A DNA stretch of 64,000 bases from Paludibacteraceae bacterium (GCA_017479885.1 JAFVBR010000022.1:34555-98554), one strand, 5' to 3'; counted from the first letter of the stretch, positions 24,008 to 29,345 are shown. Translations and numbers: made by a program. The notes: generated by a model not told the origin, from the letters alone.

Positions 24008-24384
24008 TGCTTCTGCCCTCCTATTGTCTTGCTACTGATTGCCTCGCGTCTTGTATGTTGTTTTACTTGCATGGTAGCATATTGCTCGTCTGTCAGAATA
24101 TTTCTCATCTGCATGCTGTATTCCTTCCATGCTGCTGCCTTGGCTTCAACAAGTGCCTTGTCATCAGAAGCATATCCCGAATTGGCAGCAACCACAGCTT
24201 CGGCATATCTTGTCGTTGCAGCAGTCAGTCGGGTTGTCTGTTCTGCACTCAGCTGAACATCTGCCGTCACATCCTGCACCATCTCCTGAGCCAAGGTTTG
24301 CGGACTTTTCTGCAAGGAAGAGGTCTGTGCCGTTACAGGAATCATCATCCCCAGCAATGCTGCAATAATAATGGTCTTCTTCAT
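24004..24384 (-). CDS. small secreted LTxxQ-motif protein (Spy/CpxP-like?), full-length copy
   Basis: Signal peptide MKKTIIIAALLGMMIPVTAQ. LSAEQTTRL and LTDEQYATM motifs. 126 aa. ATGA overlap with the fibre gene. Confidence 0.65.
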   Translation of the reverse strand: MKKTIIIAALLGMMIPVTAQTSSLQKSPQTLAQEMVQDVTADVQLSAEQTTRLTAATTRYAEAVVAANSGYASDDKALVEAKAAAWKEYSMQMRNILTDEQYATMQVKQHTRREAISSKTIGGQKQ

Positions 24385-24412
24385 ATTAAATAATATTTTG
24401 TTGTTCTGTTTC

Positions 24413-26434
24413 TTATTGTTTTATGAATTTTGCTTGTAGTTGTTCTCCATCAGTGGTTATTGCACGCACTATATACATTCCTGCAGGTAGCGCAGCAACA
24501 CTAATCTCTGTCTCTGCAGTTTGCAATACAGGTTGACCACTGAGAGAATAAATGATAACCATGGACAATTGCTCTGTTGAATTGATAGTCAAAATGGTAT
24601 TAGCGGGATTTGGAGAAATATAAAACTTCTCATTAGCCTCTATGCTTTTATCATTATCTTGATATGATGCCTTGTCTTCAGAATTAATATTTCGTCTCAT
24701 TAAAGCAGGAGCAGAACTGTTATTTGCTTGCGGTTGTTCTATATAGGCATGGAAAGTACCTCCACGTTCAACGCGAAAACCAGGTTTAAGATGAATCTTG
24801 TCTGTTGCCTTGAAAGTTACATTGCTACCTGATTTTACTACTACATTCCCATAAGGAACTGCATTTGTAACAGAGTAACCTGCAAAAATCTCAGGGTAAT
24901 ACTCTATGATACTTGTGCCACTTTCGTATGTCTTGTTCTGTATATATTGTCGTCGGGCTTCTTTTACTGCTTCATAAGCATTGACCAACCCATACCCTAC
25001 TTCCTCATTCCATGTTCCATCAGAATATGTTGTATTAAATGAATACCTCGTCAATTTGTAAGCGGTCTTTCTAATGATTGAGCGAACTTGCGACCAAGTT
25101 AAATCTGGATTAACAGATAACATCAAAGCTGCTATACCTGCAACAAAAGGGCATGCCATAGATGTACCTGAAGGATTATCATATTGATCATGAATATCTG
25201 TTGTCCATATTAATGTCCCAGGTGCCACAACATCTAATCTTTCACCATAGTTAGAAGTGGTTTTTCTTATTCCAGTTTCATTTATATTGCCTACCGAAAT
25301 TGTATGTATATTAGACGAAGGATAATTAATTGTGTCTTTAGAATCGTTGCCAGATGCGCAGACTACAATGCATCCTTTTTTATCTCTTCCTTTATTAACA
25401 GCCTCTTTTATCACTTTATTTAATATAGTAGTTTGTTCCTCATATGACCAAGAGTTACTTATTACATCAGCATGGGACGTATTGATTGCATATCGAAAAG
25501 CTTTAATATTCCAACTAACTTTTGAATACCAATGATGTTCTCTCTTTTTTTTGTTGAATAGACTATATGCCTTCCTAATCGGAATAATTTTACTATTATA
25601 TGCTACACCAACACAACCAATGTTATTATTTACCGCAGCTATAATACCTGCACAATATGTTCCGTGTCTATCTGCTTTATTTGGGAAAGATGCATCGGCA
25701 TATCCTCCATTTATACCTCCTCTATTCCCATCTGTGCAATCATAACCTGGTAACATGTTATCATATAAATCAACATGGGTTAAATCTACTCCTTCATCAA
25801 TAACCGCTACACGTATGTTTTCACCTGTTGATAAAGTCCACGCTTCTGGAGCATTTACATCAATCATAGGATCAAGAATGTTATTTAATCCCCATTGGTA
25901 TGAATATTTGGGGTTATTAGTTTCATTGGATAATGCTTGCTTTGATATAATCATGTAATCAGGTTCTGCAATTCGACAAAAAGTGGAATCAGATGTTACT
26001 TTATTACAGATGCTGTCTATTTTAGTATAAGATAGATTTCTTACGGATAAAGTAAAACAAGCAGGAGTTCCTATAATCGTATCAATACTTATAATATTAG
26101 ATAGTAAGCCGTAGTGATTTAACAATAGTGATAAGTCATTGACGTCATACAAAATAATCGTATTTTGCATTGCGCATTCTGTATCTTGTTTCTTCCATAC
26201 AGGGGAATAGAAAATAGCATTATTTGTGCATGCAGTGTCATTATTAACATGATATGTTTCACCTATATATGTTTTTAAACCTATTCTATTTATGTAAAGA
26301 CTATCAAAAACATTTAAATCTTTGTTGGTAATGCATAAAGTACTATCTGTCTGCACCCATCCTTCATTATATTGTGCAAACAAATTTATACTTATACTTA
26401 ATATAAGTATTATTAATAGAAAGTGTGATTTCAT
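24413..26434 (-). CDS. subtilisin-like S8 serine peptidase with T9SS C-terminal sorting domain
   Basis: Asp VAVIDEGVD, His HGTYCAGIIAA, Ser GTSMACPFVAGIAALM. C-terminal sorting domain has 40 of its last 46 residues identical to that of the C10 protein (hand count). ATG at 26434 preferred over TTG at 26443. Confidence 0.85.
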   Translation of the reverse strand: MKSHFLLIILILSISINLFAQYNEGWVQTDSTLCITNKDLNVFDSLYINRIGLKTYIGETYHVNNDTACTNNAIFYSPVWKKQDTECAMQNTIILYDVNDLSLLLNHYGLLSNIISIDTIIGTPACFTLSVRNLSYTKIDSICNKVTSDSTFCRIAEPDYMIISKQALSNETNNPKYSYQWGLNNILDPMIDVNAPEAWTLSTGENIRVAVIDEGVDLTHVDLYDNMLPGYDCTDGNRGGINGGYADASFPNKADRHGTYCAGIIAAVNNNIGCVGVAYNSKIIPIRKAYSLFNKKKREHHWYSKVSWNIKAFRYAINTSHADVISNSWSYEEQTTILNKVIKEAVNKGRDKKGCIVVCASGNDSKDTINYPSSNIHTISVGNINETGIRKTTSNYGERLDVVAPGTLIWTTDIHDQYDNPSGTSMACPFVAGIAALMLSVNPDLTWSQVRSIIRKTAYKLTRYSFNTTYSDGTWNEEVGYGLVNAYEAVKEARRQYIQNKTYESGTSIIEYYPEIFAGYSVTNAVPYGNVVVKSGSNVTFKATDKIHLKPGFRVERGGTFHAYIEQPQANNSSAPALMRRNINSEDKASYQDNDKSIEANEKFYISPNPANTILTINSTEQLSMVIIYSLSGQPVLQTAETEISVAALPAGMYIVRAITTDGEQLQAKFIKQ

Positions 26435-26435
26435 A

Positions 26436-27023
26436 TTATTCAACTATTTTAAATGCTATTTCAAATTGAGGTAATTTAATCCAAGTCGTATCTGGTTTAG
26501 TATCGTAATATGAGTTAAAATAATAATCCCCCAAGTTCGGAATAGGACGGTGTCGGTATCTTAACAAATAGTTTCCTGCCTTTATCTTACAATCACTTAT
26601 ACGCCCGAACAGAAACTCTCCTCCTATAGGCAATTCTTTAACATGTGTTGAATCTATTATTATCGCAGGGCTATCCCAACCGGATGGTTGTGACCAGTCT
26701 CTTATTGGTTGAGATGTAAATTGATGAAACTGTATGGACTCATCGATGTAATATTTGAAAGAGTCAGTAGGATTTAGAAATCTTTCTTCTGCACTTAATG
26801 GGATTTCAGAAGAGTCATTTATAATGTCAAAATGTAATATAAAGTTCTCTCTTTCTTTATACGTTGTGGACAATTCTCCTTTTGTCGTTGTCAAATAATA
26901 ATGAAATGATATTCCTTCGTAATTATATACCATAGGATTACCTATATTTTCTCGAACAATAATATTATTATCGCAAGAAACAATACAAAGTATAACAAAT
27001 AAATATAAACTACATTTTTTCAT
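26436..27023 (-). CDS. hypothetical lipoprotein immediately upstream of the S8 peptidase
   Basis: Lipobox IVSC. 195 aa. The stop TAA is 1 nt before the peptidase ATG. Confidence 0.6.
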   Translation of the reverse strand: MKKCSLYLFVILCIVSCDNNIIVRENIGNPMVYNYEGISFHYYLTTTKGELSTTYKERENFILHFDIINDSSEIPLSAEERFLNPTDSFKYYIDESIQFHQFTSQPIRDWSQPSGWDSPAIIIDSTHVKELPIGGEFLFGRISDCKIKAGNYLLRYRHRPIPNLGDYYFNSYYDTKPDTTWIKLPQFEIAFKIVE

Positions 27024-27085
27024 GATATGTAATCTAACTAATCTGAATATTGCTTTAATCTAACAAGAACTATTTAACTGGTGAC

Positions 27086-28453: not shown

Positions 28454-28461
28454 ATCCTTTG

Positions 28462-28866
28462 TTATTTAGATAATGCTACAATAATAGCCTGATTAAATGC
28501 TTCAAAATCAATATATGCCGGCAGAATATCAGTGGTGACGGGTTCCCTATAATTAATAAAATTAGTACTCGTGGAATCAATATTTTCATATGCAAATTTA
28601 TAAGGAACTTTGACAGGGGTTATGCAATAACAACCATATTGTACATCTACCACATCATCAAACTTATCAAAAATCAATATGGAGTCTTTTGTACTGGTTA
28701 CTATATAAACTCCTTTATGATAAATATCATGTGTATCACTACAGCCAATTGCGCCAACGATATTCCCGGTATAATAATCCAAGGAGTCAGAATTACAAGA
28801 AAAAAGTGATATCATAATAATTATTGTTATACCACCTGATATAATATATAAAAATCTTCTTTTCAT
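28462..28866 (-). CDS. hypothetical lipoprotein
   Basis: Lipobox LFSC. 134 aa. 4-nt overlap with the upstream ORF. Confidence 0.5.
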   Translation of the reverse strand: MKRRFLYIISGGITIIIMISLFSCNSDSLDYYTGNIVGAIGCSDTHDIYHKGVYIVTSTKDSILIFDKFDDVVDVQYGCYCITPVKVPYKFAYENIDSTSTNFINYREPVTTDILPAYIDFEAFNQAIIVALSK

Positions 28867-29198
28867 TCTATCTCAAATAAAATTGATAATGGAATAGTAT
28901 AGCTAATAGTATCTGAGACGCCATTATTTTTAGTAACAAATAACATATCCGGTGATTTAAAGTAATATTTGCCTTGTGTAACAGAGACAGCACTATGAAC
29001 CCCTGTTTTTCTTACAGATGAATATGGTGCAATGGGTGTGAATAGATCTTTAACAGTGTCGGATTCTACTCCCGTAATAGACATTTGTTCAATCCAGTCG
29101 TCGGTTGAAGCATTGTAACAATCACCTATTAGGTTGTTATTTATTGTCATAATCGTGTCTTTCCTTGTGTTTTCGATTTCCATCGTCAATATAACCAA
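28863..29198 (-). CDS. hypothetical protein lacking a credible start; frame stays open upstream into the signal-peptide fragment
   Basis: The only starts are TTG at 29198 and ATG at 29183. The same frame has no stop up to 29343 but is offset from the MKKTIII fragment frame. Confidence 0.35.
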   Translation of the reverse strand: MVILTMEIENTRKDTIMTINNNLIGDCYNASTDDWIEQMSITGVESDTVKDLFTPIAPYSSVRKTGVHSAVSVTQGKYYFKSPDMLFVTKNNGVSDTISYTIPLSILFEIE

Positions 29199-29270
29199 AG
29201 AATTTTGCCTAAAAACATTTGTATAGTTGCCATTCTTGTCTGTTAGTGAATATGTGAACTTAACAGAATC

Positions 29271-29345
29271 TGTAAAGAAGAGTTCTGTGCCAAAGCAGGA
29301 ATCATCATCCCGAGCAATGCTGCAATAATAATAGTCTTCTTCATA
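29271..29345 (-). pseudogene. third, 75-nt copy of the small-gene 5' end (signal peptide only)
   Basis: ATGAAGAAGACTATTATTATTGCAGCATTGCTCGGGATGATGATTCCTGCTTTGGCACAGAAC... encodes MKKTIIIAALLGMMIPALAQNSS. Homology stops near 29271 and the frame ends at TAA after 33 codons. Confidence 0.7.

Follow-up and report, generated by a model that had tools for sequence, protein, structure and literature searches.

Why does the 5' end of one small gene occur three times in the same orientation, twice fused out of frame to other coding sequence? The question arises from a stretch of 64,000 nt from Paludibacteraceae bacterium (GCA_017479885.1 JAFVBR010000022.1:34555-98554), the window of this study, whose positions are used as coordinates throughout. 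The gene codes for a protein of 126 aa and lies in an island flanked by ManC (mannose-1-phosphate guanylyltransferase, 29369-30469) and GDE (glycogen-debranching gene, 18026-19978). Every open reading frame (ORF) between these two genes is on the minus strand, and at 20.0-29.35 kb the G+C content is 30-38%, compared with 47% for the whole window. A sequence-only reading of this DNA had proposed that recombination used the repeated 5' end as a junction again and again, and that the repeats head a pilS-like archive of silent, 5'-truncated cassettes upstream of one expression site.

Our analysis leads to a different answer. The ManC-GDE segment appears to consist of some three paralogous copies, in tandem, of a unit with four genes: a small periplasmic DUF4890-like protein, a trimeric fibre, a lipoprotein and a protease secreted by the type IX secretion system (T9SS). 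Judged from the loci compared, this unit is conserved in rumen Paludibacteraceae. Unit 1 comprises copy 3 of the 5' end, a truncated ORF (28863-29271), a 134-aa lipoprotein and a 114-aa ORF. Unit 2 comprises copy 2, a 265-aa fibre fragment, a 195-aa lipoprotein and an S8 subtilase with a T9SS sorting domain. Unit 3 has the intact small gene, a 477-aa fibre, a 205-aa lipoprotein and a C10 protease with a T9SS sorting domain, and is followed by a remnant, a 56-aa ORF (p56). Only in unit 3 are the small gene and the fibre gene both intact. We consider it probable that the repeats mark two additional fibre/protease units, now broken, which lost their middles by microhomology deletion.

The repeated 5' end and its two junctions

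Are there really three copies? A 43-nt probe from the module, i.e. the repeated 5' end, matched exactly three minus-strand sites with at most one mismatch (24342-24384, 28019-28061 and 29302-29344), and none in 100 dinucleotide-preserving shuffles. The repeat is real. Copy 1 is the start of the intact small gene (24004..24384, minus strand), which encodes a signal peptide and two LTxxQ-like motifs. Copy 2 (27875..28093, minus) consists of a 32-nt leader and the first 187 nt of the small gene. Over these 219 nt copies 1 and 2 are 88% identical (24198-24416 vs 27875-28093), with 92% in coding nt 1-73 and 88% in nt 74-187. The product of copy 2 matches the 126-aa protein in 54 of 62 residues, exactly as had been reported. 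Copy 3 (29272..29344, minus), the first ~73 nt of the small gene including the signal peptide, starts 24 nt downstream of the ManC stop; its ATG is at 29344 and not at 29345 as first given. Its homology extends over ~73-78 nt (29344 to ~29270), with 88% identity to copy 1 and 93% to copy 2, and then ends. Repeat finding returned a three-member family of ~93 nt, which includes 29269-29361. The longest exact tracts common to the modules are 39, 34 and 31 nt. The leader and the start of the small gene (~30 nt) occur a fourth time, in a far more diverged form, at the head of the 56-aa lipoprotein ORF p56 (20020..20190, minus), 84% of whose residues are conserved in a related locus, L017.

The copy-2 homology ends, as the sequence-only reading had stated, at a shared 9-nt word, ATGCCGAAG (27883-27875, minus), the ATG of which opens the 265-aa fibre ORF (27086..27883, minus). 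The parental positions of this junction were found in relatives. A scan of a genome collection provided five loci and a metagenome scan four short ones, too few for the frequency of such scars in the family. In a roe-deer metagenome-assembled genome (MAG; loci L006/L016) the order is ManC – 228-aa protein – C10 protease – small gene – 538-aa fibre – GDE, and the small protein is 82% identical to that of the window. In blastn alignments window 24556-23268 matched L006 9827-11117 (85%; small gene and N-terminal part of the fibre), window 28083-27875 matched L006 9979-10187 (83%; leader and 5' end of the small gene), and window 27886-27153 matched L006 11227-11960 (78%; C-terminal part of the fibre). 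The two sides of the junction are colinear with two separated positions in L006, 9979-10187 and 11227-11960. The shared word (27875..27883) equals small-gene nt 179-187 and fibre codons 285-287. The parental words in L006 are ATGTAGAAG in the small gene and ATGCCAAAG in the fibre gene, which agree with ATGCCGAAG, the word in copies 1 and 2 of the window, at 7 and 8 of the 9 positions, respectively.

The L006 fibre reads ...HFYTN-M285-PKFYFNKPLSVQGG..., an exact match to the start of the 265-aa ORF. The 'start codon' of the latter is therefore an internal Met codon of the ancestral 538-aa fibre. The fragment corresponds to residues 285-538 of the L006 fibre (78% nucleotide and 76% amino acid identity to L006 11227-11991). 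It lacks a signal peptide, whereas natural fibre-family members of ~253 aa carry one. Copy 2 itself heads an out-of-frame ORF of 82 aa (27813-28061, minus). A microhomology-mediated deletion of ~1.05 kb (1051 nt in L006 coordinates) between the two copies of the 9-nt word would account for this arrangement. It would have removed the rest of the small gene together with fibre codons 1-284 and left small(1-187)::fibre(285-end). The length of 1051 nt is not a multiple of three, and the fusion is out of frame.

Copy 3 has a similar structure. As had been noted, the ORF to which it is joined runs through the junction without a stop, in a frame other than that of the module ATG. This ORF is a 5'-truncated lipoprotein gene (28863..29271, minus). 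We looked for a relationship to the 195-aa lipoprotein of unit 2; BLASTP gave no similarity. Its homologue is a 196-aa lipoprotein encoded between the fibre and the S8 gene in a red-deer MAG (L019), where the order is small gene – 465-aa fibre – 196-aa lipoprotein – S8 protease. By tblastn the window ORF is 75.6% identical over 135 aa to L019 11946-12350 and corresponds to residues ~61-196 of the 196-aa protein. The junction words CTTGCAGAA of the small gene and ATTACAGAT of the lipoprotein gene are merged into TTTACAGAT, with TT.CAGA (4-7 nt) in common, so that small-gene nt ~73 is joined to lipoprotein codon ~61, out of frame. Here a deletion of ~1.9 kb probably took out what followed in the small gene, all of the fibre gene and ~60 codons from the start of the lipoprotein gene, leaving small(1-73)::lipoprotein'. 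On its other side, ManC and copy 3 are colinear with ManC and the small-gene 5' end in L017 (window 30473-29269 matches L017 8873-10076).

Because the source is a metagenome-assembled genome, misjoined contigs could in principle have created the repeats. Three assemblies, made with different assemblers from different samples, agreed at 100% over the same 12 kb of the island, and repeats of 88-93% identity would not collapse. We assign an artefact a negligible probability. Two contigs from a fourth sample were 99.95% identical to the locus.

Since both junctions map colinearly inside intact genes of relatives, they are best explained as deletions, and because the fusions are out of frame they qualify as pseudogene scars. 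This modifies the proposed recombination origin: illegitimate recombination at microhomology holds for both mapped junctions, but they are deletions and not crossovers in the module. They conform to what is known of microhomology deletion in redundant tandem paralogues. The same short word is kept once (9 nt and 4-7 nt), 1-2 kb are lost, the frame is broken and relatives retain the intact arrangement; we see no essential difference. Unusual is only that left breakpoints fell repeatedly in one small gene, always among its first 190 nt.

Erosion of the unit in relatives

Why is it always the 5' end that survives? The spacer from the upstream stop, either that of ManC or that of a protease sorting domain, to the small gene is only 23-28 nt long. 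The gene so close upstream probably sets a limit to deletions on that side, since any that extended beyond the spacer would harm it. In addition, the bias may be one of detection, as a scar can be recognised only when some of the small gene is left. The redundant small and fibre copies would have been dispensable while the downstream protease genes were kept. Twice the leader and first codons were reused in frame as the start of a lipoprotein gene. One instance is p56. The second is in L019, where after the S8 gene a 142-aa lipoprotein gene begins with the leader and 23 nt of the small gene (88% identity).

The order small gene – fibre – (lipoprotein) – S8 or C10 protease was present in seven loci (L016, L018, L019, L020, L010, L021 and L022). 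Erosion was encountered here as well. L017, with the closest flanks (88%), keeps ManC followed by small(1-122), colinear with ManC and copy 3 of the window. A second deletion lies within its small gene; of the fibre only the 45 C-terminal aa remain, and the intact small–fibre pair is lost. In L018 the protease is reduced to its sorting domain. These erosions differ from those in the window and, by comparison of the loci, appear to have arisen independently. Separately, the S8 gene of L019 (12350-14367) is split into two ORFs of 269 and 402 aa, either by a frameshift or by an assembly error; possibly it is another decaying cassette gene.

Silent archive or decaying copies

Next, we asked whether the broken copies could serve as a reservoir for the intact pair, i.e. 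programmed antigenic variation of the pilE/pilS type, in which silent truncated cassettes feed a single expressed small–fibre locus by frequent gene conversion with the 5' module as homology arm. The likeness to Neisseria pilE/pilS is evident. In both cases one intact locus has truncated, directly oriented copies of a surface-structure gene nearby, with a conserved segment in common; in the window the direct repeats contain exact tracts of up to 39 nt, and a fibre fragment of 265 intact codons has been retained. Exact tracts of 31-39 nt are near the minimum for RecA-dependent exchange. The pilS copies of Neisseria, a system with analogues in vlsE, msp2 and tprK, lack a promoter and the 5' constant region and are made up of many variable cassettes with conserved flanks on both sides. 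The scars in the window are of another build: they keep leader, ATG and signal peptide and have lost the middle. There is a single fibre fragment in 64 kb, it has 37% amino acid identity to the expressed fibre, and no nucleotide repeat between the two was detectable. The 5' flank of the fragment is small-gene and not fibre sequence; a conversion would copy the deletion.

Which copies are likely to be transcribed? Matches to the Bacteroidetes promoter consensus TTTG-N17-23-TAnnTTTG number 16 in the window with 1.6 expected; they lie mostly just upstream of ORFs and are useful here as markers of transcription units. There is none at 19.8-30.5 kb and none on the minus strand at 13-32.9 kb. The sole -7 box near the start of the array is located ~50 nt upstream of ManC, and between the units no terminator-like site was predicted. 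A sigma-70 promoter scan, which is not informative for Bacteroidota, gave 52 sites with 41 expected. As the only promoter-like box is upstream of ManC, the supposedly silent copies are the promoter-proximal ones in a co-directional cluster.

Frequent conversion should also leave its mark on the modules. The copies are 88-93% identical to each other and 89-93% identical to the module of the sister species in L017, the positional orthologue of copy 3; identity to L006 is 82-85%. Thus, the modules are not homogenised. A module phylogeny was abandoned because the 73-122 shared nt differ at only 3-4 sites. Furthermore, no variants were seen in the assemblies: the locus is identical over 12 kb in the three independent ones, which speaks against active variation as far as consensus assemblies reach. 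L017 has no 'expression site' at all. Taken together, the pilS-like archive could not be upheld, and programmed variation appears very improbable. The related proposal that the repeats permit deletion, duplication or conversion of cassettes stands in one part. With 39-nt tracts deletion is possible in principle, yet it would only remove genes. Recombination by way of the 5' module would either excise 3.7 kb or carry a deletion over into the intact pair, and would yield no new fibre.

Some observations weigh against decay as the full account. An assembly is a consensus and would not reveal minority variants, and all long contigs came from essentially one strain. In the fibre fragment all 265 codons are still open, although the DNA is AT-rich. 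Compared with its L006 orthologue, its synonymous divergence (dS) is 1.14 and the ratio of nonsynonymous to synonymous divergence (dN/dS) is 0.13, which looks like purifying selection; either the deletion is recent or the fragment is still constrained or used. Copies 1 and 2 differ by a dS of 0.26, calculated from 62 codons only, while each has a dS of 0.7-0.8 to L006. Such a low value despite anciently different fibre types leaves room for past recombination or conversion among the modules. The fibre genes of relatives are mosaics, broken at a GHVGIGT motif. Finally, an 852-nt contig, L027 from sample SAMN15829993, joins the 3' end of prfB (release factor 2) to the copy-2 unit. These hints of dynamics would fit recombination over evolutionary time at a variable locus, not a programmed switch.

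The prfB-linked contig, the shared joint and the gene unit

In L027 (region 1-300) a 24-nt tandem duplication (ATATCTCATGGAGTTYCCAGACTG, twice) links the end of prfB to window 28258-27682 at 99.3% identity. The breakpoint is 197 nt upstream of the copy-2 module. The window has a corresponding trace, since 28262-28233 repeats, in degenerate form, the final ~25 nt of prfB. It lies inside the 114-aa ORF of unit 1 (28109..28453, minus), the 3' half of which is spacer DNA starting with this degenerate prfB end. This ORF is therefore probably a chimera and not a gene. The sequences suggest that the copy-2 unit once stood beside prfB, or still does so in another strain. The prfB contigs recovered were all from other species (80-86% nucleotide identity), with unrelated downstream genes. 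The spacer upstream of copy 2 also contains three tandem 11-nt units (ACGGCAAAARC, 28163-28194), which are kept in L027.

A 24-nt duplication at the 3' end of prfB calls to mind mobile islands that integrated in tandem at the 5' end of the small gene, the repeats being attL/attR-type duplications. The low-G+C island bounded by core genes and the position of a repeat at the head of each block would conform to this. Yet the repeats stop at various positions (+73, +187, in L017 +122, and at other sites +23 to +30). Each junction corresponds to the interior of a gene that is intact in a relative, which makes it a deletion, and Pfam, NCBIfam and PHROGs scans of the island ORFs identified no recombinase, integrase or transposase domain. 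Tandem integration is hardly credible. The island contains no tRNA, and an Rfam scan gave only a chance sub-threshold snoRNA match.

The contig bears as well on exchange of whole cassettes. Such a scheme rests on the joint that runs from the 3' end of the protease sorting domain across the 28-nt spacer into the 5' end of the small gene. This joint would be portable homology: on an evolutionary timescale, homologous recombination through it would stack units, lose them or swap them between strains or loci, while the scars would arise on the side and at times serve as substrates. The S8 and C10 proteases are of unrelated catalytic types, yet share their 3' ends and the joint (75% identity over 259 nt, 20161-20419 vs 24355-24613). 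Their last ~140 residues are 43% identical, and the joint is 81-82% identical to those of relatives. Different genes are headed by the joint in L019 and at p56, and the fibres are mosaic between relatives. The cassette genes have 30-45% G+C within core flanks of 50-59% (window 20000-29350, L006 7618-11994, L019 10001-14881); in all three loci the small gene and the N-terminal part of the fibre are the most G+C-rich part of each unit. The copy-2 unit carries a relic of the prfB 3' end, and L027 places this unit beside prfB. On the other hand, no assembly that was compared had a recombinant between the protease–small-gene joints, the junctions observed are microhomology deletions and not crossovers inside the joint, and the modules are not long enough for a robust phylogeny. 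We regard cassette exchange as unlikely. A farther-reaching version, in which the joint moves cassettes between ManC-linked and prfB-linked loci and between strains, truncated fibre 3' ends are kept as donors for tip replacement and mosaic fibres are the products, is a distinctly slim prospect.

What do the genes of the unit encode? The 477-aa fibre (22574..24007, minus), whose start overlaps the small-gene stop (ATGA), has a repeat region which aligned with the structures 8OJN (E = 2.7e-5) and 8OND (3.4e-5). These are the Bdellovibrio MAT fibres Bd3182 and Bd2133, respectively (Caulton et al. 2024, PMC10769870). It also matched the tail-fibre PHROGs phrog_18345 and phrog_9942. Hence the 477-aa and 265-aa proteins are putative trimeric fibres, MAT-like or phage-tail-fibre-like. 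The family has more than 2000 members in Bacteroidota, some of which are named 'tail fiber protein' by their sources. As in Bdellovibrio MAT fibres, the repeat region aligns with solved chains and the C-terminal parts in the family are mosaic. In contrast, the window fibres belong to another phylum, at 250-540 aa are far shorter, are linked with a small DUF4890-like gene and T9SS proteases, and have a C-terminal domain of their own. This conserved domain of ~90 aa (GADFVFD...HLPxIPSA...LLQKIEELTLY) had no match among Pfam or NCBIfam models.

The two fibres of the window are of different types, which switch at GHVGIGT: the fragment in unit 2 is L006-type, the fibre of unit 3 L018/L019-type. The 3' part of a former allele with an L006-type tip was thus kept beside an intact gene with another tip. 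This is a likeness to Rhs and CdiA, polymorphic surface or toxin proteins with orphan or displaced C-terminal modules. Unlike such modules, the fragment in the window is located upstream and is headed by the 5' end of another gene; no stretch of fibre homology precedes it and no toxin/immunity logic is evident.

The 126-aa small protein has an identical counterpart, annotated as hypothetical, in a Paludibacteraceae MAG. Its Pfam score for DUF4890 was 19.4 bits, below the gathering threshold of 29.7, and its 82%-identical orthologue P0002 carries a precomputed PF16231 match that is marked weak. Our literature search on DUF4890 found no paper, and no description of the gene unit there.

Among the lipoprotein ORFs, the 134-aa ORF of unit 1 (28462..28866, minus; an ORF call) overlaps the preceding stop with its start and has no homologue in the loci of relatives. 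The 195-aa lipoprotein of unit 2 (26436..27023, minus) is likewise an ORF call, and the 205-aa lipoprotein of unit 3 (21955..22572, minus) has weak similarity to the 228-aa protein of L006. Scans of Pfam, NCBIfam and PHROGs gave no match for any of these ORFs (111', 134, 114, 195 and 205 aa). Of the proteases, the S8 subtilase of unit 2 (24413..26443, minus) is intact (PF00082, 1.9e-53) and the C10 cysteine protease of unit 3 (20219..21958, minus) matched PF01640 (2.3e-43); both have the T9SS C-terminal sorting domain PF18962.

Elsewhere in the window, ARAGORN predicted at 12948-13028 a tRNA-like gene with a 2-base 'anticodon' (ca), beside a tRNA-Met at 13311-13385. Two minus-strand genes, 33067-34233 (a Big_2/BACON surface protein) and 34567-35535, have runs of a 10-nt periodic repeat (TTGTTTAGNR) at their upstream ends (34225-34315 and 35532-35592). 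At 30814-30882, in the interval from a BACON-domain gene to the ManC promoter region, an 18-nt unit, AGCATACCCRGTCTCTAC, is repeated ~3.8 times in tandem; a sub-threshold chance Rfam match, SNORA81, overlaps this repeat.

What does the locus then tell about its bearer? Read as decay, it is a clean and fully mapped case of surface-protein operon copies that are being lost by microhomology deletions. This is an ordinary and well-documented kind of gene decay and opens no new mechanism. The leads beyond decay are the gene unit itself and its prfB-linked variant. Should the joint indeed drive exchange between strains, it would provide a handle on how gut Bacteroidota diversify their surface fibres and secreted proteases.

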